Positions 2,913-17,519 of a DNA stretch of 34,544 nucleotides are shown piece after piece. The translations under genes and the position numbers were made by a program. Under the pieces are notes generated by a model. It made no database searches. It saw nothing but the letters and a program-made list of their open reading frames with translations, and was not told the DNA's origin. The stretch lies in assembly GCA_964575155.1 (NCBI GenBank), contig CAZNSB010000001.1, positions 1-34,544 on the forward strand, given 5' to 3'. Every line of letters begins with the position of its first letter. Position 1 is the stretch's first letter. This DNA is from an uncultured Planctomycetaceae bacterium (GTDB lineage: Bacteria; Planctomycetota; Phycisphaerae; SM23-33).

Positions 2913-4232
2913 ATGACGACCGTCTCGGGCAAAGTGCATTACGGGAAGCACTTGGTCCGCAAGATCACGTGCCCGAACTGCTGGCACTCCTTCCCGCCGG
3001 AGGACGTCCTGTTCATCGCCAAGCACACCGACCTGGTGGGCGATCCCATCGCCGGCGGGAACGAGTACCTCCGGTTCATGCCCGTCCGGTTCAACCTCGA
3101 GGGCGAGGCGCTGGACCCCCGCGGGGTGCCGACGTCGGATTTGGCCTGTCCGCGCTGCCACCTGGAGCTGCCGGACCAGATGCTCGAGGTCTCCCCGCTG
3201 TTCATCTCGCTGGTGGGCTCCCCCGCCAGCGGGAAGTCGTATTTCCTGACGGCCCTGGTGGACGGGCTGCGGTCCCTGATGCCGCGGGCGTTCCTTCAAT
3301 TCACCGACGCCGACACCGGGGCCAACAGCCCCATCCTCGAATACGAGAAGACCCTCTTCCACAGCTCCAGCCCGGAGGAGGTGACGGAGATCCGCAAGAC
3401 CCAGGCGGACGACCCGGACCTGCACCAGACCGCCCTGATCGGCGACATCCCGGTCCGTTTTCCGGTGCCACTGCAGTTCCAGCTCTGGCCGAACGAGCGG
3501 CACCCGAAGTTCCCTCAGGCGTACCGCATCGGGCGCATCGTGGTGATGTACGACAACGCCGGGGAAGACTTCCACCCGCAGACGGAAAGGGCCTCCTCGG
3601 CGGCGGTCAGGCACCTGGCCAGCTCGCACGTTCTGTTCGTGATGTTCGATCCCACGCAGGACACCACCTTCCGCGCCCAGTGCCACAGCGACGACCCCCA
3701 GCTCAAGCACGGGTTCCGCCCCGGGGCCGAGGCGACGCCGCTGCTCCGTCAGGAGAGCATACTGAATGAGGCCGCCAGGCGCATCCGGCGATACCACGGC
3801 GCCTCCCAGAGCACCCGCCTGAAGAAGCCGCTGATCGTGGTCGTCCCCAAATTCGACATCTGGGAAGACCTCCCGGGCCTGTCCCTGCAAGAAGAGCCGT
3901 ACGTCGACTCCGAGAACAACGGCCCGGCCAAGATGAACCTGGAGCGGGTCGAGCAGGTCAGCGAGTCGATCCGCGAGCTGTTCTGCCGGCTGTGCCCCGA
4001 CTTTGTGGCCACGGCCGAGGGCCTGAGCGAGTTCATCCGGTACGTCCCCGTCAGCAGTCTTGGAAGGAGCCCCGAGTACGTCGTGCGGGAAGACCGAAGC
4101 TTCTACGGCATCCGGCCGAAGGACATCAAGCCGAGGTGGGTGACGGTGCCCCTGGCGTACTGCCTGTGCAAATGGGCGACCGGACTGATCGGGTGGGCCG
4201 ACGCCCCCCGGCCGCCCGGGAGGTCCGAATGA
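2913..4232 (+). CDS. Zinc-ribbon-fused P-loop GTPase (TRAFAC-like; possibly of the 'double-GTPase' type found in GTPase-centric conflict systems)
   Basis: ATG 2913 is preceded by GGGGAAAGGA with a 7-nt spacer, and the upstream part of the track ORF is R/P/G junk. The protein is 439 aa. Zinc-ribbon cysteines are C20-x2-C23 ... C79-x2-C82. G1/Walker A is GSPASGKS (nt 3216-3239), G3 is hhhh-DNAG (VVMYDNAGE, nt 3552-3563) and the G4-like motif is VVVPKFD (nt 3846-3857). Confidence 0.85.
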   Translation: MTTVSGKVHYGKHLVRKITCPNCWHSFPPEDVLFIAKHTDLVGDPIAGGNEYLRFMPVRFNLEGEALDPRGVPTSDLACPRCHLELPDQMLEVSPLFISLVGSPASGKSYFLTALVDGLRSLMPRAFLQFTDADTGANSPILEYEKTLFHSSSPEEVTEIRKTQADDPDLHQTALIGDIPVRFPVPLQFQLWPNERHPKFPQAYRIGRIVVMYDNAGEDFHPQTERASSAAVRHLASSHVLFVMFDPTQDTTFRAQCHSDDPQLKHGFRPGAEATPLLRQESILNEAARRIRRYHGASQSTRLKKPLIVVVPKFDIWEDLPGLSLQEEPYVDSENNGPAKMNLERVEQVSESIRELFCRLCPDFVATAEGLSEFIRYVPVSSLGRSPEYVVREDRSFYGIRPKDIKPRWVTVPLAYCLCKWATGLIGWADAPRPPGRSE

Positions 4233-6973
4233 GCCTCGAACTGATTTACACGTCGGCGCCGCGGGGCCTCCGGCCGAACACCAGCGGCTTCTGCACGGTG
4301 GCGGCCACCACCGGCATGCCCAAGCACGCCTTCGAGAAGCTGGAGATGCTCAGCGGGTACGAGTTCTGCTACAACATCTCGGACGCCCGCGCCGACCAGA
4401 ACCCCGTCAACTTCATGCACACGCTGATCCTGATCGGCGGCGCCGGGCGTCACGTGCTGTCCAGGATCGCCTATTCCGGGGCAGACCACACCGCCCGCAC
4501 CAACAAGATCGCCCACCACTTCCTGCTGGAAGAGCCCGAGATGGCGGCGGCGGGGCCGGCGTGGATGCTCTCTCGGCTGTCGGCGGAGTCTTTCCGGAGG
4601 AAATGGGACGAACCCGCGGCCGAGCTCCCGCAGAGGTCCTTTGCCGACGCGCCGGGCGGCGCCCAGCCAGCCGACCCCGCCCCGGCCAAGGCCTGGCAGG
4701 AACGCACCGGCGACGCCGGCTGGGCCGGTGAGCTGGCCAGGGCCTTTCGCGAAGACAAAAAGGTCCCCGCCTACGTCATCTACAAGCCGGGGACCGACCT
4801 CCTGCCCCTCTTCCAGGAAAGCCTGGCCCTCCTGCCGGCCGAGGAGAGATGGTCCGTCTGCTTTGCCACCTACTACACCGCCCTGCCGACGGGCTGCCGG
4901 TGCCACTGGCGCGGGGTGGTGGCGGGCTCGAAGGCGGCCGGGGAGGCCGGACGCTTCCCCAGCGCGGTGGTGATCGACCTGACCCGCGCGGCGGGTCCGG
5001 CGCCGGAGAACGAGTTCACGGCGGCGGCCCGGCGGGGCGAGGCGGTCGCGCCGCTGGCGAAGGCGCCCGCCGCCCGGGCCGCCAGGCCCGAGCCGAGGAG
5101 AAGGGAAAGGGCCTTCGAAGCCGCCGTCGCCGAGGCCGTGGCTGCGGCCCCGGCCGAGGCGGGCCGGGGCGGGGCGCCCCGGCCCGCCGGCTACCCGGCC
5201 GGAGCGGCGCCGGCGGGATGGGGGCAAAGGTCTTCGCGGCTTCGCCGGCTGGTCATCGCCCTGGGCGCGTTGGCGGCGATCCTGGCGCTGGCCAACGCGT
5301 GGACGTTTTCCGGCCTCATGTCCGCGCGAGAGGACGCCGACGGGCTCCGGCGGAAGCAGACCGAACTTCAGGTCGAGCTGGCGCGGGCGCGGGTAAAGGC
5401 CGAGGACGCCGAGGAAAGTGTGCGGGCGCTGCGAGCGACCATCGCCGAGCTGAGGGGCAGCAAGCCCGGCCCGGAGCCCCCGAAGCCCCCGGTTGTGAGA
5501 GATCCGGTCCCCGAGCCCCCGAAGCCCCCGGTCGTGCCCCGGCCCGGCCCGAAGCCGCCGAAGCCCCCCAAGCCGACCCCGCCGACGCCGCCGGCTGTAA
5601 CGAGACTGAAGCTCAAGCCGCCGATGCCCCGGCGGGACCGGAAGGTCCGCGACTTCCAGCGCCGGCCCGTGGCCCCGACGTCCGTTAAGAGAAACCAGAT
5701 CGTCTTCGACATCGGCAAGGCCGACACCTTCCTGGATATGCCCGGCGTGCTGACCTCCAGCCGCGCTTTCACCTCGGAACGCGGGCGCGAGAACATGACC
5801 ATCAAGTGCCGCAGCGCCAGCGGGCTTTCCAAGAAGGTCCTCGAGTACTGGATCGAGGACGTCGGCGGCGCGCACCGGCTCATGCTGGAAATCCCCGAGG
5901 ACGCGGGGGGGGCCGGCGACTACACCAAGACGCTCGAATCGCTCGTCATCGAGGTGGTCGAGGAGGGCAACCGGGTAATCTACCAGTGTTCGCGGCGCCA
6001 GCCCCCCGCCCCCGAGACGATCGTCCTCGGGTTCAAGCCGGACGGGACCCCGATCGTCCCCGCCCGGAAAAGCTACAGCTACCTCTGGGCGAGCGTCCTG
6101 GAGATCGTCGACGCCGAGGACGAGCTCCTCAAGCGCAGAAAGGACCGCGCCGGGACCGCCCTGCCCGTGCTGGAGCTTGATCCCCCCGTCCAGGGCTTCG
6201 CCAAGCCGGTGTACACCTTCGAGTTCGACCGGCCCGAGCAGGGCCCGAAGTGGTCCATCCGGGTCAGCACGAACGCGACCGGCGAGATCGTCAACGAGGT
6301 CAAGAAAAGGGACCAGGCCCTGGCCGACCAAAACGGAAAGCTGGCCCCCCTGCTCCAGAAAAGGAAGGAACTCGGCGCCAAGAAGGGCCAACTGGCCAAG
6401 GTCGAGCAGGAAATGAAGATTCAAGAGAAGCTCGTGACTGATGTAGACAAGAAGACGGCGGCCCTCAAAGACAGCGCCAAGAAGCTTCGTGCCCAGAGCA
6501 CTTCGCTGACTGCGTCGATAAACAAGCTCGTAGACCAGAGAGACAAGATCGACACGCAGCTCAAGAAGAGAAATGCCGACAAGAAGAAGCTGCAAGCCGA
6601 AAAGACCAGGCCCAATGGCCAGATCCAAAAGAAGACCACCGAGCGAGACAAGTTGGACAAGGCCCTCAAGGCCGAGCAGCAACAGATCAAGCAGGCCGAG
6701 GCGGAGAAGAAGAGACTCCTGGGCCTGCCCGAGCTGAGAAGAACATTGCCGGCCGATATTCAGAAGCTGGAGAAGCAGATCGAGAAGCTGCCGGCGCAGC
6801 AGCAGGCCGTCAAGAAAGCGGGGGCCAGGCTCAACGAAATGACGAATATCATGAAGAAGCTGTCCGCCCAGGCGGGTCTCGTGAAGGTCATTGACCCGTG
6901 GGACGTGCCGGTGGCGACGTTCGAGTTGAGGTTCCAGCCGGCGGGCCTGAAGGAGATCCTGGCGAAGAACTAG
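4229..6973 (+). CDS. Bitopic membrane protein with a GAP1-N-like (GTPase-associated protein 1) N-terminal domain, a TM helix, a coiled coil, a Pro-rich spacer, a beta-rich domain and a K/E/Q-rich coiled coil
   Basis: The ATG at 4229 overlaps the stop of the GTPase gene (ATGA, 4229-4232). The protein is 914 aa. The N-terminus MSLELIYTSAPRGLRPNTSGFCTVAATTGMP matches, from memory, the h-x-YTS...GL...sGF..vA.s.G signature of GAP1-N2-type proteins. The TM helix is LVIALGALAAILALANAWTFSGL (nt 5249-5317), preceded by RSSRLRR, which implies N-in topology. The Pro-rich spacer is PEPPKPPVV x2 plus PKPPKPPKPTPPTPP. A heptad-rich region covers the last 225 codons. Stop TAG at 6971-6973. Confidence 0.85.
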   Translation: MSLELIYTSAPRGLRPNTSGFCTVAATTGMPKHAFEKLEMLSGYEFCYNISDARADQNPVNFMHTLILIGGAGRHVLSRIAYSGADHTARTNKIAHHFLLEEPEMAAAGPAWMLSRLSAESFRRKWDEPAAELPQRSFADAPGGAQPADPAPAKAWQERTGDAGWAGELARAFREDKKVPAYVIYKPGTDLLPLFQESLALLPAEERWSVCFATYYTALPTGCRCHWRGVVAGSKAAGEAGRFPSAVVIDLTRAAGPAPENEFTAAARRGEAVAPLAKAPAARAARPEPRRRERAFEAAVAEAVAAAPAEAGRGGAPRPAGYPAGAAPAGWGQRSSRLRRLVIALGALAAILALANAWTFSGLMSAREDADGLRRKQTELQVELARARVKAEDAEESVRALRATIAELRGSKPGPEPPKPPVVRDPVPEPPKPPVVPRPGPKPPKPPKPTPPTPPAVTRLKLKPPMPRRDRKVRDFQRRPVAPTSVKRNQIVFDIGKADTFLDMPGVLTSSRAFTSERGRENMTIKCRSASGLSKKVLEYWIEDVGGAHRLMLEIPEDAGGAGDYTKTLESLVIEVVEEGNRVIYQCSRRQPPAPETIVLGFKPDGTPIVPARKSYSYLWASVLEIVDAEDELLKRRKDRAGTALPVLELDPPVQGFAKPVYTFEFDRPEQGPKWSIRVSTNATGEIVNEVKKRDQALADQNGKLAPLLQKRKELGAKKGQLAKVEQEMKIQEKLVTDVDKKTAALKDSAKKLRAQSTSLTASINKLVDQRDKIDTQLKKRNADKKKLQAEKTRPNGQIQKKTTERDKLDKALKAEQQQIKQAEAEKKRLLGLPELRRTLPADIQKLEKQIEKLPAQQQAVKKAGARLNEMTNIMKKLSAQAGLVKVIDPWDVPVATFELRFQPAGLKEILAKN
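5474..5532 (+). repeat. Tandem 39-nt period repeat (20-nt identical core gagcccccgaagcccccggt x2) encoding PEPPKPPVV within a Pro/Lys-rich spacer
   Basis: Identical 20-mers at 5474-5493 and 5513-5532, followed by ccgaagccgccgaagccccccaagccg (PKPPKPPKP). Confidence 0.8.
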
Positions 6974-7077
6974 TGCTCTGTCAAGCATCATTTTGCTGGT
7001 GGCACAGGTTTGTAACCTGTGCGAGACAAACAGGTTGAAAACCTGTTCCACCCACAGATTCAACCTTGACAGAGCAC
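6973..7077. mobile_element. 105-bp MITE-like non-autonomous element with 13-bp perfect terminal inverted repeats, flanked by a TA duplication in a CTAG target (IS630/Tc1-mariner style)
   Basis: The left TIR is gtgctctgtcaag (6973-6985) and the right TIR is cttgacagagcac (7065-7077). Flanking TA dinucleotides at 6971-6972 and 7078-7079 sit inside C-TA...TA-G. The interior is about 47% G+C by my count, against a much more GC-rich background. It contains two related perfect hairpins: GCACAGGTT-tgt-AACCTGTGC (7002-7022) and AACAGGTT-gaa-AACCTGTT (7029-7047). Each TIR carries an outward-facing TTGACA. Confidence 0.7.
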
Positions 7078-7114
7078 TAGCCGGGGGGTGAGACTTCCGG
7101 CGGAGGCCGGGGCG

Positions 7115-10100
7115 ATGATGCCAACTGCAGAGGCGGTCGAAGAGATACAGTCGTTCCTTTACGGCGAGGCCCAGTTGGACGGCAGCCGGCTGCTCTCGCT
7201 GGCGCGCGCCTACGCCGAGGCCTGCACCCGGGTCAACAAGAAGGCCCTCCAGTGCCGAGACCTGCTCCACAAGGGGCTGCGGAACGAGGCCATCTGCGTC
7301 GCCAAGGAGGAGTACGACCTCAAGGAGGAATTCCAACTGGTCAGCTTCGACGAGAACGACGCCTGGTTCAGCGTCTGCGAGAAGGAGGGCCTCCCGATCC
7401 CCGACCTGATCGACTCGGACCTGGTCACCACCGTGGTCGAGGAGATCTACACGGGGCAGGGGAACATCGACCGGCTGCTTCGGGTGTACCGGCTGATGTC
7501 GCTGGCCCGGGCGCCGGTGGTGGACCTGATTCGGGTGCTTCGGCTGATCGCCAAGGAGGACCCTCGGCAGAGGTTCTGGCGGCAGGACGTGCGGACGTTC
7601 GAGAAGGCTCGGCTGGACGAGCTGCACGGCCTGGCCGACGAGGCCGCCGAAAAAGGCGATCGGTCGGCCCTGGAGGACATCGTGGCGGAGCTGACCGGCA
7701 AGGAGTGGCTGGAGCGACCGCCGGAGAGGCTCATCAGGTCGGCCCAGAAGAGCCTGCTCCCGCACCGCCGGGAGGCGGCCCAGGCGCGCTTCGGGCAGCT
7801 TCTCGAGGAGATTCGCCAGGCCCACAGCGCCCTGGACGAGCCCGCCTGCCGAGAGGCCGTCGCCACATGGCACGCCACCATCGACCAAACCCGCATCCAG
7901 CCCGACGCCGCAGACGCCGACCAGGTCGCCCAGGTCGAGGAATGGCTCCGGTCCCTGGAAGCCGCCAGGCAGGCCGAGGCCGAGTTCCAGCAGGCCTGCG
8001 ACACCCTCGATGCCGCCCTCAACGACCGAAAAGACCGCGCCGTCGTCGAGAAGGAGCTCGCCCAGGTCCGCCGGTTCGGGCAGGGGATGCCCTCCTGGCT
8101 GAAGGACAGGGCGGAGGGCTACCTGGCCGAGCTGCGGCGGCGCGCCAGGGTGAAGGGCACGTTCATCCTCGTCGGCACCGTCGCGGGGGTCCTGCTGGCG
8201 GGGGGGGCGGTGTGGCTGGCCGTCCTGCGCCACCGGGCCGGCGAAGAGCAAAGGAGCTGGGTGAACCAGATCACCGCCTGCCTGAACAAGAAGGACCTCG
8301 CCGGCGCCGAGAAGCTGCTGAAGGACCTGGAGAGGAAGGACCCGGGCTTCCATGGCTCGGCGGAGATCGGCGCCCTGCGGGTCCGGCTGGCCGGGGAGGT
8401 GGAACAGGTGGAGTTGGCGGCGAAGCGCGAGAGGGAGCGCAAGGAGCATTTCGCCAAGGCCATGGCCCTGGCCAGGTCGGCCGGGGTGACCCACCCGGAT
8501 CGCCAGGCCCTGGCCACCGCCAAGGGGCTGGCCAGGACGCCGGAAGAGAAGGGCCAGGTCACCGACCTCGAGCAGCGCATCGCGGAGGCACGCCGCGTCA
8601 GCACCGAGGAAAGGAAGGCGCAGATTGCCGCCACCGTGGCGAAGGCGCAGGTCGGGATCGGAGCACTCACCAGCGCCCTCGACCCCGTCAGGGAGCCCGA
8701 CCTCGAAAGCGTCGAGAAGCTCGCCAAACGATGCACCAGCTTCCTGGACCTTCTGGACGGGCTCCCAAAGAAAAACCCCCTCTCCGGGTCGATCTCCCGC
8801 CAGCGCGTGGCCAAGGCCCAGGAGGTCATCGACGAGGCCGTGAAGAAGGCCAAGGCCCCGAACCCGGCGCGTTTCGAGAACCTCGAAGCCCCCGCCGGGG
8901 CGTGCGCCGAGCTGTGCCGGCTGCTGGCGGCAAGCAAGGAACTCTCGAAAGAGCAGCAGGCCCTCCTGGCCGGTGCCGCCGACGCCGCCGACAAGGCCTT
9001 GAAGGCCGCCAAGGCCAGGTTCGAAACGGACCGGAAAATGGCCGCCGACTGGAAGGGGATTTCGAGGCTGTACGCCCGGCCGGAGGAGCTGGGCACTGCG
9101 CTCGTCGCGTTCGCCAGCACCTACCCGAATCACGCGTTTGCCAAGGACCTGGCGGCGGCCGCCACCATGACGACACAGTGCCGGTCGATGGGAGTATGGG
9201 AAGGCCTGGTCAAGCCGTGGCGCGCGGCCCCGCCCGTTTCCGACGCCCAGGAGGCCGAACGACGGCACACCGCCCTCGACCAGTTCCGCAAGGATCACGG
9301 CTCCGGGCCGTGGGAGGACGCCGCCAAGAGATACGCCGAGTACCTCCGGGCCGCGGTCGACACCTTGCCGAAGGACCGCCTCCCCGCCCAGCTTGCCGAC
9401 ATCCAACAGTTCCTGAACGACGACCTGATCGCCGCCTCGTCCATGTTCGTCACCAGGACGGGCAGTCGGTACTACTTGCTGAAAAACGCCGCCAAGGAGA
9501 TCAAGCTCAACGCCAGGGTGGTCGGGTGGAGGATCGATTACGTGGTCGACAGCCGATTGACCACGAAGCCGGAATCGCTGAGAATGGATGCCCTGGCCCT
9601 AATTTGCGCGCAGGGGCCGATCCCGGCGCCCCAGAATGCGCTTTCCAAGAGCATCCGGCAGGAGATCGGGCGGTTCGACGGGCCGGGATGGGAAACCCTC
9701 TGCCTGCGACTTGCCGACCTGGCACTACAGGACACGACCGTGGACCCGATCCTGCGGGCCGGCATCCTCAAGAGCCTGCTCGAAAGCGCCGCCCAGTTCA
9801 CGCCCCACCAAGCCGAGCCGATCAAGAAGACTGCGGACCGGTTTGAGAACCTCCCGCTGGAGGTGTACTGGATGGACCCGAAGGACGAGGACGCGAACAA
9901 GGCCCGCGGTCAGGTGGCCCGCTCGCTGGAGGAGATCGACCGAAAGACGCTCACCAGGATGATCCAGGACGTCCACGGCGGGCTCGACGGGCTCTTTCCC
10001 GCCCCCAGCCGGTGCGCCGGGATCATCTTCCCCCGCCGCGGGGAAGTGGTCCTCCACAAGGACCTCCGGGACGCCGACCTCTACGTCATCTCGGGCGAGA

Positions 10101-10243
10101 GCGGCAAGACGCCCGCCATGGTGAAAGTCGGCTTCGTGGCAGGAGGCAAGTTCGCGTCAGCCGGCCCGGCCGGCGGATACCCCGTCGGAAGCTGCCTCTT
10201 CGCCAGGGCCAGACACCCCGCTGGCTCAAGAAAAAGCCCTTAG
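7115..10243 (+). CDS. Large orphan bitopic membrane protein (1042 aa) with an alpha-helical cytoplasmic N-domain, one TM helix and a C-terminal region of about 670 aa predicted to be extracytoplasmic
   Basis: ATG-ATG at 7115/7118 follows GGAGG (7102-7106, 8-nt spacer); the track ORF begins at GTG 7088. The TM helix is GTFILVGTVAGVLLAGGAVWLAVL (about nt 8159-8230), preceded by RRRARVK. GC3 is consistently high. Stop TAG at 10241-10243. I recognise no family. Confidence 0.8.
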   Translation: MMPTAEAVEEIQSFLYGEAQLDGSRLLSLARAYAEACTRVNKKALQCRDLLHKGLRNEAICVAKEEYDLKEEFQLVSFDENDAWFSVCEKEGLPIPDLIDSDLVTTVVEEIYTGQGNIDRLLRVYRLMSLARAPVVDLIRVLRLIAKEDPRQRFWRQDVRTFEKARLDELHGLADEAAEKGDRSALEDIVAELTGKEWLERPPERLIRSAQKSLLPHRREAAQARFGQLLEEIRQAHSALDEPACREAVATWHATIDQTRIQPDAADADQVAQVEEWLRSLEAARQAEAEFQQACDTLDAALNDRKDRAVVEKELAQVRRFGQGMPSWLKDRAEGYLAELRRRARVKGTFILVGTVAGVLLAGGAVWLAVLRHRAGEEQRSWVNQITACLNKKDLAGAEKLLKDLERKDPGFHGSAEIGALRVRLAGEVEQVELAAKRERERKEHFAKAMALARSAGVTHPDRQALATAKGLARTPEEKGQVTDLEQRIAEARRVSTEERKAQIAATVAKAQVGIGALTSALDPVREPDLESVEKLAKRCTSFLDLLDGLPKKNPLSGSISRQRVAKAQEVIDEAVKKAKAPNPARFENLEAPAGACAELCRLLAASKELSKEQQALLAGAADAADKALKAAKARFETDRKMAADWKGISRLYARPEELGTALVAFASTYPNHAFAKDLAAAATMTTQCRSMGVWEGLVKPWRAAPPVSDAQEAERRHTALDQFRKDHGSGPWEDAAKRYAEYLRAAVDTLPKDRLPAQLADIQQFLNDDLIAASSMFVTRTGSRYYLLKNAAKEIKLNARVVGWRIDYVVDSRLTTKPESLRMDALALICAQGPIPAPQNALSKSIRQEIGRFDGPGWETLCLRLADLALQDTTVDPILRAGILKSLLESAAQFTPHQAEPIKKTADRFENLPLEVYWMDPKDEDANKARGQVARSLEEIDRKTLTRMIQDVHGGLDGLFPAPSRCAGIIFPRRGEVVLHKDLRDADLYVISGESGKTPAMVKVGFVAGGKFASAGPAGGYPVGSCLFARARHPAGSRKSP

Positions 10244-10252
10244 GGCTTCTTT
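10231..10252. terminator. Compact bidirectional hairpin lying on the overlapping convergent stop codons
   Basis: aaaaAAGCCCttaGGGCTTcttt forms a 6-bp stem (10234-10239 / 10243-10248) with loop tta, an A-run upstream and a T-rich stretch downstream. The plus-strand stop TAG (10241-10243) and the minus-strand stop TAA (10240-10242) share the loop. Confidence 0.4.
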
Positions 10253-11022
10253 CCGGACAGGAGCGTCCTCTTTGCCGCCTCGGCGGCGACGCTCGGACGC
10301 AAGGCGCCCGGAGAATACAGGTCGATCCCGCCGGCGCGGAGGTGCCCCGCCAGAGAGATGACCTTCCTGATCGCCTCGGTGCTTCGAGCCGACCCCTTCT
10401 GCGGTGCCTTCTCGGCGCCGGTGCGAGCGCAGAGCGTGCAGGAGATGACGCCGGCGCCCTGGCAGCGCGGGCAGACCACGGCGCCGGAGCCGCCGCAGTC
10501 GTTGCAGGTCGTCCCCTTGAGGGTGCCGACCCCGCGGCAGGTCGAGCACTTGGCGTGGCCCATCCCCCTGCACCTGGGGCAGTCCTCCCGGCCCGTGCCG
10601 AAGCAGCGCGGGCACCGCGCGGGAGGACGCCGGCCGACGCCGCCACGCGCGGAGAACATCTTCTCCAGCGGCGTCAGCAGGACCGAGTTGGCCAGTTCGA
10701 GCACGTAGGCCGATGCCGACGCCCTCTTCAGCTCGCGGGCCGCCAGGGCCCCGTCGCCCTGGAGGTGGGCCCGGAGCCCCTGCCGGAGGCTCTCCAGCGA
10801 CTCCAGCCGGTACCTGCGCTGATCCTTGCGGAGCCTGAGGAGCCTCCGGACGGCGGGGAGGTCCTTGGGGTTGGCCAGGACGGTCTTGCACAGCGATGCA
10901 ATCCGGCGGTCGACCTCGGCCGGCCTGAGGAGCTGCGAGAGGCCCCTCGGCGCCCGCCACAGCAGGGCGCCCACCAGGGCGCACAAGGCGCATGCCCGCG
11001 CGACGGCGGCGAACCGTTTCAT
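10240..11022 (-). CDS. Signal-anchored protein with six DnaJ-type CxxCxGxG zinc-finger repeats
   Basis: ATG at 11022 follows GGGGAAAGGG. The protein is 260 aa. The N-terminal hydrophobic segment is MKRFAAVARACALCALVGALLW. The repeats are CPRCFGTG, CPRCRGMG, CSTCRGVG, CNDCGGSG, CPRCQGAG and CTLCARTG (aa 137-202, nt 10417-10614). Confidence 0.85.
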   Translation of the reverse strand: MKRFAAVARACALCALVGALLWRAPRGLSQLLRPAEVDRRIASLCKTVLANPKDLPAVRRLLRLRKDQRRYRLESLESLRQGLRAHLQGDGALAARELKRASASAYVLELANSVLLTPLEKMFSARGGVGRRPPARCPRCFGTGREDCPRCRGMGHAKCSTCRGVGTLKGTTCNDCGGSGAVVCPRCQGAGVISCTLCARTGAEKAPQKGSARSTEAIRKVISLAGHLRAGGIDLYSPGALRPSVAAEAAKRTLLSGKKP

Positions 11023-11059
11023 CTTGCACCCTTTCCCCGGCCGGACCCGCCGCGGCGGG

Positions 11060-13609
11060 CTAGCTCCCGCACCGCACCAGCAGGTCCAGCAGGACCAGGT
11101 TGTAGTAGCAGCTCTCTCTCAGCTCCCGGACCACGTCCTTGACGTTGGCCAGGGCCTGGCGCCGGTCGCTGCGGGCCTTGGCCAGCGGCCCCTGGAGCTC
11201 TCCCTTGGCGTCGCAGGCCCGCACCAGCAGCTCCAGCAGCCCGCCCGTGGCGTCGAGACTGACCGCCGCCTGCTGCAGCGCGCCGTCGCTGGCCGCCAGC
11301 CGCGCCCCCGTGGTCGTCTCGATCGTCTCGGCCGGCGCGGAGAAGCTCTTCGCCTTGGGGTGCTCGCGGAGCAGCCTGAGCACCTGCCCGCGAAACGCCT
11401 CCAGGGCGCCGACGAGGTCGCCGCCCAGGTCCGGCGCCACGACGGTGGTGGGGCTGGCCAAGTCTGCGTCCGGCGGGGGGGCGGGCAGGCCCCACCGGTA
11501 GCTCTTCAGGCCGGCCGCGGCCGCCGAGGCGTAGTGCGCGGTGACGGCCAGCAGCTTGATGGAATCGGCGTCGGGCTCCCAGGCCGGCGGCTTGGGGGCG
11601 CCGACCGCCGGGGCCGGCGCCGCTGCTTGCCCGGCCCCCCAACGCGTCGCTTGGATGATCCGCGCCCAATCTGCCGCGCAGGACTTGCGCTGTGCGGCGT
11701 TGTTGACCATCGGCAAGACCACCCCGCGATATCCGCGGTACGTCCCCCCGGTGCCCTCGATGAGCGTCTGGGCGATCTGGTATGCCAGCTCGGCGCTGGG
11801 CGTGTGGTCGACAAGCTTGATCAGCTCCCGGGGGATGGTGGCGTCGCTCATGGACTTGAGGGCGCGGAGGACGCGGCTGGCGATCCTCATGTCGGCCCTG
11901 CGTGCTTTCGATTGACGTTGGAGCGCCTGTAGCAGGACCGCGGCGGCCTGGGTCGTGTCGAGCTTCCGCAGATCCTCGATGGCCTGGTAGCGGACGGCGA
12001 TGTTCGGAGAGATCAGGTCCACCTGGAGCTTCCTGGCGGGGTTCGCCGCCGGCTTCCCGGGCGCCGGCGCCGGCGGGGGCGGCCCCGAGGCCGCCGGGAC
12101 AGTCACTCCCCTCGTCAGGGCGCTGCGGCGATCGCTCGCCGAGGCCGCCGACCGCAGCTCGTCCTCCGACAACCAGCCCGAGGCGCCGGTCCACCGCGCC
12201 GCCTGGTTGCAGCAGGCCTTCATCGTCATGGCCACGTCCGTGAGGACCTCGTCGCGCGTCCTGGACCGCTCGTACGCCCGCCGGAACTCGGCCAGGAAGC
12301 CCCCGCCGGGCGATGGCGGCGCCGTCGGCGACAGCTCGCCGATGTCCGCCGCCGGCACCGGCTCCAGGCCGGGGCGGCTCGGGGGCTGTGGCACGAGCGG
12401 CGTCGGCGCCGGCGGGGGCGCCGCCGGGGGCGAATCGGTCGGAGGCTCGATCGGGAGCAACTGGCGGGGCGCCGGTTGCGCCGCCGGCGGGCGGGGGGAG
12501 GGCCGATCCGGCCTCTCCCAGTCGCCGGTGAGCGCCTCCGAGACCAGCGAGAAGGCGCTGGTCGGCGGGGTCGGGGGCTCCCAGAACCCGCCGAAGGCCA
12601 GCAGGAGCGCCATCAGGACAGCGACGGCGACGGCCGGGATGGCAACGACCTCGACCTGCGGGAAGGACCGGCGGGGCACGCCCCCCCCCGCCGGCGGGAG
12701 CGGCACGGGCGAGGTCGGCGCCGGCGAGGGGGAGCTCAGACACCGCTCCATCACCTGCCGGGCCCCCTCCGCCGCCAGCCCGATCGCCGCCGCCGCCTCC
12801 AGCAGCCTCGCACGGTCCTCGGCCGATGCCCGCCCCTGCGGGTGCATCGCCCGCACCTGCTGGGCGAACATATCCTCGATGGCCGCCCGGTCCCGGTCGT
12901 CGCGCCGCGCCTGTCGGCTCCGGAGGCGCTGGTCGATCCGCTCGGCGGCGAGGTCGGCGGGGATGCCCAGCCTCCTGGCCAGTTCCGTCAGCTTGCGCTC
13001 GTCCGCAGCGGCCAGCACGCCGCCCTCGATCTCCATGTCGATGACGCTGTCGAAGAATTGCAGCGCCTCGTCACTCGGCGGGCCCGCGGGCGCGGCCGGG
13101 GCCGGGATCTGCGCCAGGGCGGCCTCCACCTCCTGCTCGGGCAGGCCCAGCCGGCAGAGGCGTTCGGCCAGTTCCGGTCGCCTGGGGTGGTCCAAGGTGC
13201 CGTCGGGGGCGACCATGGAGGCGATGACCTGTCGGGCGGCCCGGACGAGGCGTTCCCTCTCGGCGCGGAACCTGCCGGGCCTCTTCGGGCGGGCCTCGCC
13301 GGCCACACGCTGCTGATACTCCGCCCGCCTCTGCGGGCTCAGCAGCGTCTCCGCCGCCTCTGCCAACTGCTTCTCGAACAGCATCACCATGGGGATGAAC
13401 TGGGGCCCGGGGATGTTCTGGCGAAGCTGCATCCTGCGCTCCCGCAGGGCCCGGCGGACGGCATCGGGGCTCACCTGGCGGGGGGAAAGCCCCAGCAGCT
13501 CGTACGGGGTGGGCTCCGTCTCCTTCTCGGGTATCCCCAGCAGTCTGTACAAGGCCTTGGCGTACAGCATGGTCAGGCTTCGTCGGATCGTCCCCGGCCG
13601 ACAGGTCAC
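11060..13609 (-). CDS. HPD-less J-like domain membrane protein with helical repeat modules, one TM helix, a Pro-rich linker and a HEAT-like C-terminal region
   Basis: The start is either GTG 13609 or ATG 13570 (MLYAKALYRLLGIP...), and neither has a clear SD. The J-like region is YELLGLSPRQVSPDAVRRALRERRMQLRQNIPGPQ...LLSPQRRAEYQ, with QNIPGP where the HPD motif would be. The TM helix is VVAIPAVAVAVLMALLLAFGGFW. HEAT-like sequence: ISPNIAVRYQAIEDLRKLDTTQAAAVLLQAL. Stop TAG at 11060-11062, 37 nt before the Zn-finger gene. Confidence 0.8.
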   Translation of the reverse strand: MTCRPGTIRRSLTMLYAKALYRLLGIPEKETEPTPYELLGLSPRQVSPDAVRRALRERRMQLRQNIPGPQFIPMVMLFEKQLAEAAETLLSPQRRAEYQQRVAGEARPKRPGRFRAERERLVRAARQVIASMVAPDGTLDHPRRPELAERLCRLGLPEQEVEAALAQIPAPAAPAGPPSDEALQFFDSVIDMEIEGGVLAAADERKLTELARRLGIPADLAAERIDQRLRSRQARRDDRDRAAIEDMFAQQVRAMHPQGRASAEDRARLLEAAAAIGLAAEGARQVMERCLSSPSPAPTSPVPLPPAGGGVPRRSFPQVEVVAIPAVAVAVLMALLLAFGGFWEPPTPPTSAFSLVSEALTGDWERPDRPSPRPPAAQPAPRQLLPIEPPTDSPPAAPPPAPTPLVPQPPSRPGLEPVPAADIGELSPTAPPSPGGGFLAEFRRAYERSRTRDEVLTDVAMTMKACCNQAARWTGASGWLSEDELRSAASASDRRSALTRGVTVPAASGPPPPAPAPGKPAANPARKLQVDLISPNIAVRYQAIEDLRKLDTTQAAAVLLQALQRQSKARRADMRIASRVLRALKSMSDATIPRELIKLVDHTPSAELAYQIAQTLIEGTGGTYRGYRGVVLPMVNNAAQRKSCAADWARIIQATRWGAGQAAAPAPAVGAPKPPAWEPDADSIKLLAVTAHYASAAAAGLKSYRWGLPAPPPDADLASPTTVVAPDLGGDLVGALEAFRGQVLRLLREHPKAKSFSAPAETIETTTGARLAASDGALQQAAVSLDATGGLLELLVRACDAKGELQGPLAKARSDRRQALANVKDVVRELRESCYYNLVLLDLLVRCGS

Positions 13610-13712
13610 CCCGGCGGCTGCCCGGCCGCAGACCAGATCGCGTCCCGTTCAAGATGGTACCGGGCGACGACGCGGACGACAAGGACAATACCCCCCGCCG
13701 GGGAGAGCCCTC

Positions 13713-13740
13713 TTGTTACCGACGGGAAGTCCGCTAAGAT
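13713..13740 (+). promoter_or_regulatory. Candidate sigma70-like promoter for the Zn-ribbon/vWA/exbBD operon
   Basis: TTGTTA (13713-13718), a 16-nt spacer, then TAAGAT (13735-13740). This is only 13 nt before ATG 13754, which implies a near-leaderless mRNA, and no SD is visible. Confidence 0.3.
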
Positions 13741-13753
13741 ACCGGGCGCGACG

Positions 13754-14926
13754 ATGATCGCATTCGAATGCGAGAATTGCGGAAAGCCGTTGAGGGTCGC
13801 GACCCGGCTGGCGGGGAAACTGGCCAAGTGCCCGGGGTGCGGGCACGCCGTCCGGGTGCCCATCTCGACGATGCCCCCCGAGGAGGAGCCCGCCGGCGCC
13901 GCCCCGGCGGAGCCGCCCCAGGCCGGGGACGTCGCTCCCGCGGCGCCGGAGTTTGGGGACAGGCAGGCTCCGTGCGGCGAGGGCGAGCCGCCGGCCCCGG
14001 CGCCGGGGACGGACCAGCCGCCCGTCCCGGCGGCGCCCCCGCCGCAGGCGGGGGGCCCACTGGACCTCCGCGCCGGCGCGGCGCCCGCCGAGGACACGAC
14101 GGCGGACGTCCTCGCCGGCGCCCTGATGCTGGCGACCTTCCTGATCCCCTGGGTGGTGCTGCCCAACGGGGTCTTCATGTCCTGGGACGTCGCCAGGGAG
14201 GCCGGCGCCGCCTTCAACATGTTTCTCGTCGGCGCGTGGGTGATCGGCATTGCCGTCCTCCTCGTCAACCTCTCCGTCCGAGGCATCCAGCGATGGAGGT
14301 GGAACGCGGGGCTGGGGGCGCTGGGCATGGTCCTGACCCTGATCATGCTGGGGCAGTTCTCGCACGCCGACTGGAGCACCAGCCCGCTGCCGAACTCCAG
14401 GACCGTGGCCATCGTCTGCGTGCTGCTCCTGGTGGCCCTGATCGTGGTGGAGAACCTGCAACTGCGGTTCCAGGCCAATCAGTCGCTGGCGACGGCCGGG
14501 CGGGTGGTGGGCGCGCTGGTGATCGCGGCCTTCGCCGCCGGTCTGGTCAAGGGGGTCGCCAATTACAGCGACCAGCCGGTGGACCTGCGGGAGAGGTCCG
14601 CCCTGGACCTGGTGTTCCTGTCGTTCTGGCGGCTGGCGATGATCGCGGCGGGCGTGGCGGCGACGCGCCCGCCCACCGCCGCGGTGTCCCGGTTGGTCCT
14701 GACGGGTCTGTACGTGTCGCTGGGCGTGCTGGGGGCCTACCTGATCGTCCGCCCCCCCTTCCTGTTCGAGATCGGCGGGATCGCGCTGACGTTCCTGAAC
14801 CTCATCATGATCGTCGGGGGGCTGATCCTCCTCGCCTGCCGGGGGTTCATCGAGGCCATCAGCGAGCGCATCCGAGCTTCGCGCCCGCCCCCCGCCGCGG
14901 CCGCACCCGGGGCAAAAACCGCTTGA
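13754..14926 (+). CDS. N-terminal zinc-ribbon protein fused to a polytopic (about 8 TM) membrane domain
   Basis: ATG 13754; 390 aa. The ribbon is MIAFECENCGKPLRVATRLAGKLAKCPGCGHAVRVP. A Pro/Ala-rich linker is followed by about 8 hydrophobic helices. Stop TGA at 14924-14926. Confidence 0.8.
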   Translation: MIAFECENCGKPLRVATRLAGKLAKCPGCGHAVRVPISTMPPEEEPAGAAPAEPPQAGDVAPAAPEFGDRQAPCGEGEPPAPAPGTDQPPVPAAPPPQAGGPLDLRAGAAPAEDTTADVLAGALMLATFLIPWVVLPNGVFMSWDVAREAGAAFNMFLVGAWVIGIAVLLVNLSVRGIQRWRWNAGLGALGMVLTLIMLGQFSHADWSTSPLPNSRTVAIVCVLLLVALIVVENLQLRFQANQSLATAGRVVGALVIAAFAAGLVKGVANYSDQPVDLRERSALDLVFLSFWRLAMIAAGVAATRPPTAAVSRLVLTGLYVSLGVLGAYLIVRPPFLFEIGGIALTFLNLIMIVGGLILLACRGFIEAISERIRASRPPPAAAAPGAKTA

Positions 14927-15016
14927 CGTCCCTGCGCGTCGGCGGTCCAATGCGCCCGGGCGTTCAGGGCTCGCCCCCGGACCGCTGGCGCCGTCCAAGG
15001 GCGGAAAGAGGGTAAG

Positions 15017-16297
15017 ATGATCTGTTTCCAGTGCGACAACTGCCAGAAGGATCTGCGGGTCCCTGACCGCCTGGCCGGAAGGATGGCCAGGTGTCCCCGC
15101 TGCGGAAAGGCGGTCCGAGTGCCCATGGTCACCTTCGCGCCGGGCCCGCCCGCCCCGCCTGCCGGGCCTCACTCGCCGCCGGCGCGGGCGCGGGCGGGCG
15201 TTGGCGCCGCCGGGCGGCCCGTCCCCCCCGGCCCGCCGGCCGACGCGACGGCCCCGCAGCCCGCGGCGGGGGCGGGGGCGCCGCCGCCCGGCCCGGACGA
15301 GGGGGAGGAGGCGGCGCCGAGGGAGGTGGTCGGGCCGAAGCACCGCAGCGACTCCGTCGCCGGGTGGGCGGTCTCCCTGATCCTCCACAGCCTCATCCTG
15401 GTCGGCTTCTCCGGATACACGTGGATGGCGGGCCTCGGGACCGGCGGCGGCCGGGCCGAGGCCGACATGGGCGTCGTCATCGACACCGGCGGCGAGATCT
15501 CCTCCGGCGCCGCCGAGGCCCTCCAGATGCAGGCCGACGTCGGCGAGGTGGCGCTTACCGGCCTCAGCCAGGAACCGGCCGGCATCGAGCCGATCACCGG
15601 CCTGGGGCCGGGCGTGTCGGCCTCGTCGCCGATCGGCCCGCTGGTGGCGTCGGCGCTGTGCGGGGGCGGGGGCGGACCCGCGGCGCGCGGCGACCTGTCG
15701 ATGATCGCCGGCGGCGGCGTGGGCGGGGGGGCGAGCTTCTTCGGCATCGTCACCCCGGCGGACGCCAGCAAGTTCGTTTACGTCCTGGACTACTCCGGCA
15801 GCATGCAGGGGAAAAAGCTCGCGCTGGTCAAGGAAGAGCTGCTCCGCGCGATCAGCGCCCTGAAGCAACGGATGAAGTTCTACATCATCTTCTACGACGA
15901 CGACTACGAGGCCATGGCCGCCGAGAAGCTGGTCCCGGCGACCCAGCAGAACAAGCGCCAGTACCTCACCTGGGCCAACGGGGTCCACGGGGGCGGGGGG
16001 ACCGACCCGACCGAGGCCATGAAACTGGCCCTGTCGCTGAAGCCTCACGCCATCTGGCTGCTCTCGGACGGCATATTCAACCCCCACGCGTGCGACGTGA
16101 TCCGCCGGGCCAACCCCCGGGCGCGGGTCCGCATCCACACGATCGCGTTCTGGGACAACGCCGGGCAGTCGCTGCTGGAGCGGATCGCCAAGGAGAATCG
16201 CGGGCGGTGCCGTTTCGTGCCCGGGCCGGGGTCGGCGCCGCCAGGCGCCCGCCCCGCCGGCCGGCGGCATCCGCGAAGGACAATCCGCCGCCCATGA
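15017..16297 (+). CDS. Zinc-ribbon, Pro/Ala-rich linker, TonB-like (S-x3-H) TM anchor, Gly-rich linker and von Willebrand factor A domain protein
   Basis: ATG 15017; 426 aa. The ribbon is MICFQCDNCQKDLRVPDRLAGRMARCPRCGKAVRVP. The TM helix is WAVSLILHSLILVGFSGY (S120 at nt 15374, H124 at nt 15386). The vWA MIDAS motif DxSxS is DYSGS (nt 15788-15802), followed by GGGTD and LLSDG. Confidence 0.85.
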   Translation: MICFQCDNCQKDLRVPDRLAGRMARCPRCGKAVRVPMVTFAPGPPAPPAGPHSPPARARAGVGAAGRPVPPGPPADATAPQPAAGAGAPPPGPDEGEEAAPREVVGPKHRSDSVAGWAVSLILHSLILVGFSGYTWMAGLGTGGGRAEADMGVVIDTGGEISSGAAEALQMQADVGEVALTGLSQEPAGIEPITGLGPGVSASSPIGPLVASALCGGGGGPAARGDLSMIAGGGVGGGASFFGIVTPADASKFVYVLDYSGSMQGKKLALVKEELLRAISALKQRMKFYIIFYDDDYEAMAAEKLVPATQQNKRQYLTWANGVHGGGGTDPTEAMKLALSLKPHAIWLLSDGIFNPHACDVIRRANPRARVRIHTIAFWDNAGQSLLERIAKENRGRCRFVPGPGSAPPGARPAGRRHPRRTIRRP

Positions 16298-16310
16298 AAG
16301 GGCCGTGCCC

Positions 16311-17060
16311 ATGAGAAGGACCGCGTGGCTGTCTGTCATCGTACTCGTTCTGCTGCTGCTTTGGGTCTGGGCGGGTCAGGCGGCCGCCCAGGCCCCGCCC
16401 GACAGCGCGGACGCCCAGGTCGGGGGAAAGAAGATCTCCCTGTGGCGCATGATCCGGGCCGGCGGGTTCATCGGGTTCGTCATCATCCTGCTGTCGCTGG
16501 TGGCCACGGCGCTGATCATCGAGCATTTCCTCTCGATCCGGCGGGACCGGCTGGTGCCGCCGGTCCTTGCGGACCGGCTGGGGGCGTTCCTGGACGCCGG
16601 CCAGCACGAGCAGGCGCAGCACGAGTGCGAGCAGGACGCGTCGTTCCTGGGCGCGGTGGTCAACGCCGGGCTGGGGCAGCGGGGAGGGATGTTCGGGTTC
16701 TTCGACATGCAGACCGCCATGCAGGAGGTCAGCGAGCGCGAGGTCTCCAAACTGTACCGCAAGATCGAGTACCTCGCGTTCATCGCGGGCGCGGCCCCGA
16801 TGCTGGGCCTGCTGGGGACGGTGACGGGCATGATCGTCTCGTTCAACGTGATCGCCCAGAGCGAGGGGACCGCCAAGCCGTCGCAACTGGCCGAGGGCAT
16901 CTGGGAGGCGCTGATCACCACCGTCGAGGGGCTGGTCGTGGCCATCCCCGTCATGTTCTTCGTGTCCTTCTTCCGGGGGCGGATCGACAGCTTCGTCGCC
17001 GAGGCCGAGGTCGTCGTCGAGAAACTCATGGGACGCTTCCGCAAAGCGCCCGCGGAATAG
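16311..17060 (+). CDS. exbB: MotA/TolQ/ExbB-family proton channel protein
   Basis: ATG 16311 follows GAAAGGG (alternative GTG at 16305). The family motif PMLGLLGTVTGMI is present, with three TM helices. The symbol denotes the family, not proven orthology (TolQ/AglR-like is equally possible). Confidence 0.85.
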   Translation: MRRTAWLSVIVLVLLLLWVWAGQAAAQAPPDSADAQVGGKKISLWRMIRAGGFIGFVIILLSLVATALIIEHFLSIRRDRLVPPVLADRLGAFLDAGQHEQAQHECEQDASFLGAVVNAGLGQRGGMFGFFDMQTAMQEVSEREVSKLYRKIEYLAFIAGAAPMLGLLGTVTGMIVSFNVIAQSEGTAKPSQLAEGIWEALITTVEGLVVAIPVMFFVSFFRGRIDSFVAEAEVVVEKLMGRFRKAPAE

Positions 17061-17071
17061 GAGCCGGACCC

Positions 17072-17506
17072 ATGAGACTGCACAAGCCGCGACGCAGCTA
17101 CGGGTGCGAAATCAACATGACCCCGATGATCGACATCGTCTTCCAGTTGATCATCTTCTTCATGACGGCGACGCAACTGGTCCGGATCGAGGCGGAGGAC
17201 CTGGCGCTGCCCGAGGCCGGCGAGGGCGAGCAGGTCAGCCAGCTCACCACCGGGCCGGTGGTGGTGAACGTCCATGAGGACGGGCGGATCGTCATCTCGC
17301 ACCAGACCGTCCGCCCCGCCGGGCTGGGCCCGGCCCTCGCCGAGCATCTCAAGCAGCGGGCCCCCGCCGACCGGTCGGTGGTGATCCGCGGGGACCGCAA
17401 CGCCGCCTGGGAAAAGATCACCACGGTCCTTCAGGCCTGCGCGGGCAGCCGGATCGGGCGCGTGCGCGTCGCGGTCGTCGAGCCGCCCGCCCAGCCGTCC
17501 CCGTGA
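17072..17506 (+). CDS. exbD: ExbD/TolR-family biopolymer transport protein (copy 1)
   Basis: ATG 17072 follows AGGAG. INMTPMIDIVFQLIIFFM is the canonical ExbD/TolR N-terminal TM motif, including the conserved Asp. Confidence 0.85.
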   Translation: MRLHKPRRSYGCEINMTPMIDIVFQLIIFFMTATQLVRIEAEDLALPEAGEGEQVSQLTTGPVVVNVHEDGRIVISHQTVRPAGLGPALAEHLKQRAPADRSVVIRGDRNAAWEKITTVLQACAGSRIGRVRVAVVEPPAQPSP

Positions 17507-17519
17507 GGAGGCCCCAGGC

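Follow-up and report, generated by a model that had tools for sequence, protein, structure and literature searches.

The DO-GTPase/GAP1-N2 systems, which occur in planctomycetes and verrucomicrobia, feature a TRAFAC GTPase with a Walker-B glutamate, in many cases with N-terminal zinc ribbons, and, directly downstream of it, a GAP1 protein, and GAP1 proteins with C-terminal transmembrane (TM) segments have already been noted in planctomycetes (Kaur et al. 2020, PMC7159879). We have analyzed a stretch of 34,544 nt (hereafter the window; about 70% G+C) from an uncultured Planctomycetaceae bacterium, whose 911-contig assembly is 75% complete, and which carries a locus of this kind with the genes A, B, and C. 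Gene B had been read from the letters of the DNA (the original prediction) as a protein that joins a cytoplasmic GTPase-partner module to a TonB-like spacer and long coiled coils. We find that B is the GAP1 protein of a DO-GTPase/GAP1-N2 system and crosses the inner membrane once, and that within its clade the A-B-C triad recurs beside two kinds of proton motor. This recurrent coupling of a GTPase/GAP1 pair to motors, together with the rare periplasmic module of B, is the main interest of the locus. To our knowledge, DO-GTPase/GAP1 systems are known from comparative genomics only, with no member of tested function, and the conserved coupling at the gene level offers a testable system both for the role of GAP1-N2 proteins and for nucleotide gating of periplasmic force.

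Proton-driven 5:2 motors (Ton, Tol, Mot, Agl, and Zorya) are a central theme of envelope biology, and we know of very few cases in which they are switched from the cytoplasm. Zorya is an anti-phage system with a ZorA/ZorB proton motor of the MotAB type, a long ZorA tail, and the additional proteins ZorC and ZorD; mechanical probing of the envelope by the motor has reportedly been proposed for ZorAB. In bacteria of the Planctomycetes-Verrucomicrobia-Chlamydiae (PVC) group, inner-membrane von Willebrand factor A (vWA) "force transducers" with an SHLS motif and of unknown function have been described, their gene being accompanied by one that is TolQ-like, by two distinct TolR-like ones, and by a tetratricopeptide repeat (TPR) gene (PMC12204202). 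[quoted passage not shown] Alongside the AglRQS motor, which is TolQR-like, and CglB, a vWA adhesin, GltJ recognizes MglA-GTP and recruits MglB (PMC11135422).

GTPase A and the GAP1 protein B

We identify B as the GAP1 protein of a DO-GTPase/GAP1-N2 system (Kaur et al. 2020, PMC7159879). Pfam recognizes GAP1-N2 (PF20013) at aa 2-136 (E 6.7e-25, 88 bits, cut-off 24) and GAP1-M (PF20014) at aa 159-253 (E 4.5e-11, 43 bits, cut-off 24), which bears out the GAP1-N-like domain proposed for about the first 250 residues; for the third globular domain, GAP1-C, no further Pfam match appeared at E <=0.1. B is the single GAP1-N2 copy in its genome, as far as the 75% complete assembly goes. The start codon of B overlaps the stop codon of A in an ATGA (4229-4232), through which B is translationally coupled to the GTPase, and the reading of the cytoplasmic end of B as a GTPase-partner module is supported. 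When the full structural model was searched with Foldseek, the N-terminal domain gave only weak matches, to TagF (E 0.013, probability 0.82) and, at E 0.025 and probability 0.23, to one chain in the C9orf72-SMCR8-ARF1 complex, a resemblance that we take as a lead consistent with a GTPase-partner fold and no more.

Protein A is a divergent member of DO-GTPase2. Its P-loop GSPASGKS (GxxxxGKS), K313-x-D315, and zinc ribbon (CPxCW...CPxCH) are invariant in 25 homologues, as is YDNAGE, which combines Walker B with the glutamate that defines DO-GTPases. The Pfam family matches 14 of these 25 homologues, with a best E of 3.6e-7, and A itself scores under the cut-off (18.5 bits vs 27). With PADLOC and NCBIfam, proteins A, B, and C gave only coiled-coil or P-loop noise and nothing specific. 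Several relatives of A carry an N-terminal forkhead-associated (FHA) domain of about 200 aa (locus L002, 8110-9996; L004, 5917-7683; L085, 8066-9982; L091, 8317-10008; L092, 4773-6569; L numbers are our locus numbers), and the FHA-GTPase of L002 shares 54% identity with A. We found no trace of an FHA remnant by tblastn upstream of A (2118-2912) and no convincing gene in those ~800 nt.

Beyond the GAP1 domains, every element of the predicted layout is present and in the predicted order, with some corrections of detail. The low-complexity stretch is a tether of 34% Ala, 16% Arg, and 13% Pro (aa 254-340), for which AlphaFold2 (AF2) gives low values of the predicted local distance difference test (pLDDT), staying under 50 at aa 283-336, immediately ahead of the TM helix. 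The TM helix itself, placed as predicted behind positive residues, follows an RR pair in 33/40 homologues and has a partly conserved [ST]N..T motif in the alignment columns of the same 40, with no His. It runs on into a juxtamembrane segment, REDADGLRRK...AELRG (aa 367-410), that had been taken for a heptad coiled coil: the helix is there, continuous with the TM helix in the AF2 model, and a significant heptad signal is not (3.5-residue periodicity, z 1.2, p 0.13). The Pro/Lys spacer follows, with PEPPKPPVV at aa 415-423 and again at aa 428-436, and then PKPPKPPKPTPPTPP (aa 441-455), as described. A beta domain of about 270 aa had been proposed behind it; the domain exists, and its confident fold is smaller, about 175 aa.

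In the AF2 model, ~55 low-confidence residues separate the beta domain from the K/E/Q-rich helical region (19% Lys, 11% Gln, and 8% Glu), where the predicted coiled coil of about 200 aa is matched by significant 3.5-residue periodicity over aa 686-882 (z 4.2, p 0.003). When aa 450-914 are modeled, a helix of 87 residues (aa 706-792) is followed by returning helices of 32 (aa 800-831) and 49 residues (aa 834-882), and Foldseek likens this coiled coil to the antiparallel ones of EnvC and Smc. Absent from the original list of elements is a C-terminal beta-hairpin (aa 884-903), in which D889 and W891 are invariant among the 16 nearest homologues and whose D.W[GD] motif is shared by 39 of the 58 members of the family. 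As the modeled coiled coil folds back on itself, the C-terminal strands would be returned to the beta domain, which the hairpin probably completes. Since strands follow a coiled coil here, a membrane-fusion protein (HlyD/MacA/AcrA-like), in which an alpha-hairpin is set into a lipoyl domain next to a beta-barrel domain, was also considered; it was rejected, as no such protein was among the Foldseek matches in the PDB, and a PDB sequence-profile search gave only coiled-coil noise, with MacA at E 0.5-0.9 through the coiled coil. The G+C of the coiled-coil codons (6284-6874) is 0.57, against 0.67-0.75 elsewhere in B. A foreign origin of the last 200 codons was rejected, because G+C remains 0.81 at third codon positions (GC3) and is 0.30 at second positions (Lys, Gln, and Glu), so that the drop is mainly one of amino acid composition.

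The orientation of B follows from several observations taken together. B has no signal peptide and one TM helix only, and its N-terminal domain is the one that would pair with a cytoplasmic GTPase. The 15 residues before the TM helix contain more Lys and Arg than the 15 after it in 30/40 homologues (mean 4.1 vs 2.3), and the stand-alone paralogues of the C-terminal module have a signal-anchor helix right after a short N-terminal tail. We therefore place aa 364-914 in the periplasm, and the topology of the original prediction is supported: N-in/C-out, with a long spacer and behind it some 550 residues that lie outside the cytoplasm.

The periplasmic module of B is a small, rare, and fast-diverging family that has no detectable relative and is new here. 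A profile of the beta domain found 85 representatives among 1.84 billion proteins (59 of them at E <=1e-10), either fused to GAP1, where it covers roughly aa 450-660 of a protein 750-980 aa long, or stand-alone, near the start of proteins of 260-680 aa. Relatives of the domain were found in none of Pfam, the PDB, and BFVD, and Foldseek against viral structures returned no result for B. The module of B is limited to the nearest clade, within which it is about 20% identical, while the N-terminal domain is ~55% identical across the clade (45-59% to relatives of B). Among homologues, the linker from the TM helix to the beta domain varies from 95 to 348 aa with a Pro fraction of 0.03-0.21, the window standing at the maximum, the beta core from 111 to 146 aa, and the coiled-coil insert from 55 to 367 aa. 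A long spacer is thus conserved, and a Pro/Lys spacer is not. We consider the module worth a structure. Stand-alone paralogues, B', lie directly downstream of B in some relatives (L002, 12875-14629; L004, 10769-15199; L006, 11572-13353; L086, 12597-14570), with the layout short tail, TM helix, linker, beta domain, coiled coil, and DPWG tail. Locus L004 has two B' genes, one with two tandem modules, and the window has none.

Compared with the described systems (PMC7159879), then, B shares the GAP1-N2 and GAP1-M domains and the position directly behind a zinc-ribbon GTPase with the Walker-B glutamate. It differs in lacking GAP1-C and in its beta/coiled-coil module, which is absent from that description, and the third component here, C, is a bitopic protein, apparently helical in its N-terminal half, and not one of rapidly evolving FNIII repeats.

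The A-B-C triad and its linkage to proton motors

The nearest relatives of the window are metagenome-assembled Planctomycetota and Phycisphaerae, and no cultured member of its clade was encountered. Gene neighborhoods were compared in 83 loci from PVC genomes, many of them truncated, mostly from more distant clades, and ending ~10.8 kb past the start of B. In this sample A lies upstream of B in 82/83 loci and a C homologue follows the GAP1 gene in 56/83, many of the others being truncated, so that A-B-C can be taken as the core triad across PVC bacteria. Protein C is 28-31% identical to its relatives over the full length, it has no match to FNIII or any other Pfam family, and in L002 it is split into genes of 680 and 310 aa.

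An exbB-exbD-exbD set had been placed 9 kb downstream of B, and it was found there (Table 1), exbB starting 9.3 kb past the stop codon of B and 12 kb past its start. For the linkage of such motors to the triad we used longer metagenome contigs of the nearest B homologues, which gave 13 informative loci of B's clade, and 24 genomes with more distant GAP1-N2 loci, ExbB matches being counted in both among the matches listed, where weak ones may be missed. A motor of the MotA/ExbB type stands in the same gene array in nine of the 13 clade loci, and near GAP1-N2 in 0 of the 24 genomes outside the clade among the matches listed. Among the linked loci there are three gene orders and two types of motor that are not orthologous to each other, and in some of the loci stop and start codons overlap; all of the linked loci fall in one clade of the GAP1 N-domain tree (SH-aLRT 100). 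The link to exbB/exbD, on which the original prediction drew, is thus more than chance. Chance had first been suggested by a tblastn of ExbB and ExbD of the window against the 83 loci, which gave no match. The longer contigs overturned this, and the null was an artefact, because those loci end at ~10.8 kb, with exbB at +12 kb, and come mostly from distant clades.

Five loci (the window, L085, L086, the P0021 locus, and L091) have what we call type 1, in the order vWA-ExbB-ExbD-ExbD-TPR. In L086 the whole array is co-directional (A-B-B'-C-352aa-vWA-ExbB-ExbD-ExbD-TPR), and in L085 and L091 the series ExbB-ExbD-ExbD-TPR-E-D is convergent to A-B-C. The type 1 Exb genes are orthologous, ExbB being 75% and ExbD 49-57% identical between the window and L086 and L085. 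The other four loci have type 2 (L087, 15752-19358; L088, 15840-18459; L089, 15466-18032; L093, 14619-17248), in which a MotA_ExbB protein of 289-294 aa comes directly after C, with overlapping stop and start codons in L089. Two or three paralogues follow, each with an Asp in an N-terminal TM helix (FQDV..., LLDTICNVFGG...), a coiled coil, and a C-terminal domain of no assigned family. An Asp-bearing N-terminal TM helix is the hallmark of the ExbD, TolR, and MotB plug subunits; these paralogues have no ExbD or MotB match in Pfam. Locus L006 is ambiguous, with a TPR gene related to G of the window directly upstream of E-D-A-B at the end of the contig.

The linkage of the triad to motors in B's clade (9/13), with two motor types, is new here. 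In the literature searched, the coupling of a GTPase/GAP1 pair to a motor appears undescribed, since the account of the GAP1 systems (PMC7159879) makes no mention anywhere of MotA, ExbB, TolQ, or TonB, and that of the vWA transducers (PMC12204202) makes none of a GTPase. The original prediction had not recognized its combination from any described system, and this was only half right: GAP1 with a TM segment is known (PMC7159879), and so is a TonB-like protein under the control of a GTPase, GltJ with MglA (PMC11135422), an analogue and not a homologue of the logic proposed for B.

Table 1. Features of the window from gene A to gene G, with the segments of protein B
Feature	Positions	Strand	Basis or remarks
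A, zinc-ribbon GTPase, 439 aa, divergent DO-GTPase2	2913-4232	+	motifs, Pfam
B, whole gene, 914 aa and stop	4229-6973	+	translation; homologues 750-1115 aa, same layout
B aa 2-253, cytoplasmic GAP1-N2 and GAP1-M domains	4232-4987	+	Pfam; pLDDT mostly >90
B aa 254-340, A/R/P-rich disordered tether, conserved RR at end	4988-5248	+	composition, pLDDT
B aa 341-363, single TM helix, N-in/C-out	5249-5317	+	hydropathy, alignment columns, K+R bias
B aa 364-408, juxtamembrane helix continuous with TM helix	5318-5452	+	AF2 helix aa 335-408
B aa 409-455, Pro/Lys spacer, 47 aa	5453-5593	+	51% Pro, 13% Lys; pLDDT <50
B aa 457-630, periplasmic beta domain	5597-6118	+	pLDDT 81-97; motifs LVIEV, YQC, YPWP
B aa 686-882, K/E/Q coiled coil, antiparallel hairpin in model	6284-6874	+	periodicity, AF2
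B aa 884-903, conserved C-terminal beta-hairpin	6878-6937	+	motif V.I.DPW[GD].PVA; pLDDT 85-92
Miniature inverted-repeat transposable element (MITE), 105 bp, at the TAG stop of B, between B and C	6973-7077		51-nt imperfect inverted arms, CTAG at both ends
C, third conserved component, 1042 aa, bitopic	7115-10243	+	helical N-terminal half (by sequence); TM at about aa 355-380
D, signal-anchored, DnaJ-type CxxCxGxG zinc-finger repeats	10240-11022	-	weak Pfam BSD2_CRD, DnaJ_CXXCXGXG; homologues in L002, L006, L085
E, J-like N-terminus, TM, Pro-rich/HEAT-like region	11060-13609	-	weak Pfam DnaJ, HEAT; homologues beside D in L004, L006, L085
F, N-terminal zinc ribbon, Pro/Ala linker, polytopic membrane region (~6 TM)	13754-14926	+	frame from GC3; weak Pfam Zn_ribbon_8
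vWA protein, zinc ribbon in the cytoplasm, S-x3-H TM helix, vWA domain at the C-terminus	15017-16297	+	Pfam VWA; directly upstream of exbB
ExbB (16305-17060), ExbD1 (17072-17506), ExbD2 (17520-17945)	16305-17945	+	Pfam MotA_ExbB E 4.5e-29, ExbD E 1.9e-21
G, TPR-like, start uncertain	17948-20443	+	weak Pfam TPR/ARM

Possible roles of B beside a proton motor

From domain content, gene order, and structural models, we lean toward the reading that B would couple the GTP/GDP state of A to the condition or engagement of a motor-driven periplasmic apparatus and would not be the force transducer itself, which we rate as somewhat probable. B would then be a PVC-specific, inner-membrane-spanning form of the GAP1 subunit, whose N-terminal 250 residues would pair with GTPase A in the cytoplasm. 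The long spacer, of variable composition, would hold the beta domain in the periplasm, and the antiparallel coiled-coil hairpin would project from it. Together with the bitopic C, and with B' in relatives, B could link the cytoplasmic nucleotide switch to the periplasm, and within the clade this link would work with a proton motor, here ExbB/ExbD1/ExbD2 with the vWA transducer and the TPR protein; signalling could run either inside-out or outside-in. Domain identities, the reasoning on topology, the conservation of the triad, and its linkage to motors are what the data show; that A binds B, that B or C contacts the motor module, and that the system has some output are what we infer from them.

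Several points weigh against this reading. The vWA/ExbBD/TPR block has been described as a self-contained unit of PVC bacteria (PMC12204202), and its adjacency to the triad could reflect co-regulation and not contact. No motor was found, among the matches listed, near the loci of genomes G001 (L002/L008), G002 (L010), and G012 (L044) or near L092, and because these four clade loci and the 24 distant genomes are motor-free, the triad is able to work without a motor. Beyond domain identity, the whole basis of the reading is gene neighborhood and models, and the geometry of the hairpin and the docking of the C-terminal strand come from AF2, with low confidence over aa 632-730.

A wider version, which is a serious possibility although we would place it a little short of even, makes the A-B-C triad the control unit of an undescribed GTPase-gated, proton-motor-driven envelope machine, with two 5:2 motor modules, B and C as couplers, and F and the vWA protein as clients. 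In its logic such a machine would correspond to MglA/MglB-GltJ-AglRQS, or to Zorya, without being homologous to them. The Agl-Glt apparatus of Myxococcus is alike in logic, having a TonB-like bitopic protein whose cytoplasmic end reads a small GTPase, a TolQR-type motor, vWA and TPR proteins, and zinc ribbons on the cytoplasmic ends of membrane components. It is unlike in that no homology was detected, A is not MglA-like, and B has neither the zinc ribbon nor the GYF or TonB-C domain of GltJ; we know of no gliding in organisms of this clade. With Zorya the locus shares a proton motor of the MotA/MotB type in a predicted envelope-monitoring conflict system. The similarity of the type 2 motors to it is generic only (PADLOC, ZorA E 7.5e-6 and ZorB E 1e-3), the MotA-like protein of 294 aa has no long ZorA tail, there is no ZorC or ZorD, and ExbB of the window barely matches, at E 0.004.

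The system may instead, or at the same time, serve in biological conflict, as Kaur et al. proposed for the family. In this case, which is compatible with B as a coupler and which we hold possible but rather doubtful, B, through its variable periplasmic module, would join B' and C in sensing an invader or envelope damage and signal outside-in to the GTPase, which would license effectors while the motor probes the envelope. A fast-diverging, duplicated ectodomain on a constant cytoplasmic module is a signature of sensors in PMC7159879, although such divergence is equally expected of a spacer or a scaffold. Relatives have trypsin, FGE-sulfatase/CHAT, and GYF+TM2 genes of the kind described there for planctomycetes, and some loci adjoin MmeI-like, HerA/NurA-like, and WYL genes, whereas the window has no recognizable effector within 2913-20443. 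The MotA-like and MotB-like proteins of type 2 do match ZorA and ZorB weakly, but in the generic manner and without the tail mentioned above, and PADLOC has nothing specific for A, B, or C.

We regard as unlikely the reading closest to the original prediction, namely that B itself is a TonB- or TolA-like force transducer, its TM helix resting on ExbB/ExbD, its spacer passing force on to the beta domain, which would lie at the wall or outer membrane, and the GTPase acting as a cytoplasmic gate. B and TonB/TolA do have in common an inner-membrane TM anchor, a globular C-terminal domain, exbB/exbD neighbors, and a long spacer, here a helix of 45 aa and then a stretch of 47 aa, 51% of them Pro, and the alternation of Pro-rich and helical spacers in the family parallels that between TonB and TolA (PMC12204202). 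At the four type 2 loci, moreover, there is no vWA gene and the motor comes directly after A-B-C, which would leave B or C as the obvious bitopic partners, and GltJ with MglA is a precedent (PMC11135422). Of the TonB-like character claimed for B, the Exb linkage and the long spacer thus stand, while its more specific marks are missing. The TM helix has neither an S-x3-H motif nor a His in any of 40 homologues, Pfam finds no TonB_C or TolA_C domain in B, and neither TonB nor TolA appeared in Foldseek against the PDB, where the best E was 0.056. Only the window has the Pro/Lys repeat, the spacer sequence being unconserved, and a cytoplasmic GTPase-partner module of 340 aa takes the place of the short tail of TonB. 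Among the matches listed, the triad is free of a motor in most of the family.

The window also holds a better candidate. The vWA protein encoded beside exbB has the TM helix WAVSLILHSLILVGF, in which S-L-I-L-H has the S-x3-H spacing of TonB, with a Pro/Ala-rich linker before it, and it is 64% identical to its L086 orthologue over the vWA domain. The genes at 15017-20443 match the described force-transducer block gene for gene, the S-x3-H helix included (PMC12204202). That description concerns the neighbors of B and not B, and what is new here is that a GTPase/GAP1 triad adjoins the block, which gives context to these recently proposed transducers. The vWA protein is likely, from its sequence, to be the TonB-like transducer of the adjacent motor, and as it already has the S-x3-H helix, the proposal of B as the TonB-like partner of this ExbBD set was not upheld.

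That the exbB/exbD adjacency is incidental, and B a membrane-tethered GAP1 protein that anchors a GTPase complex to the wall, is very improbable: most PVC GAP1-N2 loci have no nearby motor among the matches listed, and at least 5-11 MotA/ExbB paralogues per planctomycete genome raise the chance of adjacency, but against this stand the 9/13 linked clade loci with their three gene orders, two non-orthologous motor types, and some overlapping codons, the 0/24 linked genomes outside the clade among those same matches, and the TPR gene directly upstream of E-D-A-B in L006.

Neighboring genes and other observations

The MITE between B and C has at least six full-length copies with 95-100% identity elsewhere in the same genome. 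Without it, the gap between B and C is ~37 nt, as in relatives.

Downstream of C, the products of D and E (10240-13609) look like a split, membrane-bound relative of DnaJ, with Pfam scores below the cut-offs, and the pair is kept beside the triad in L002, L006, and L085. For gene F, the open reading frame 13768-15015 was rejected, as its translation is rich in R, G, and P and GC3 favors the frame given in Table 1. The zinc ribbons of F (MIAFECENCGKPLRV...CPGCG) and of the vWA protein (MICFQCDNCQKDLRV...CPRCG) differ little. Relatives have several different membrane proteins that are likewise headed by a cytoplasmic zinc ribbon (L086, 7068-7805 and 17818-18876; L089, 6018-7337; L088, 7259-7354), and by analogy with GltJ, this ribbon may serve all of them as a common tag for docking on the GTPase/GAP1 hub. 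Protein G is 35-40% identical over ~810 aa to the products of genes beside E in L006 and beside ExbD2 in L085.

Proteins 29-41% identical to the vWA protein of the window are encoded downstream of distant triads as well (L025, L034, L039, L041, L048, L061, L062, and L084), at about +8.5 to +10 kb from the start of the GAP1 gene. No ExbB was found near L039, L048, or L061, the three with genomes checked, so that linkage to vWA genes may predate linkage to motors and reach more widely.

Some loci of the clade adjoin genes of defense or effector type (L087, 1-3869; L088, 1177-4326; L089, 19675-21804; L093, 18525-20279). The genes in question are DUF87/NurA-like with a WYL regulator, CHAT with FGE-sulfatase, MmeI-like, and trypsin-TPR, and the window is without them. 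Last, the genome of L026, a more distant PVC member, has two GAP1-N2 genes 4 kb apart on one contig (G007:C27:25217-29853), an arrangement suggesting that the system was duplicated in tandem.

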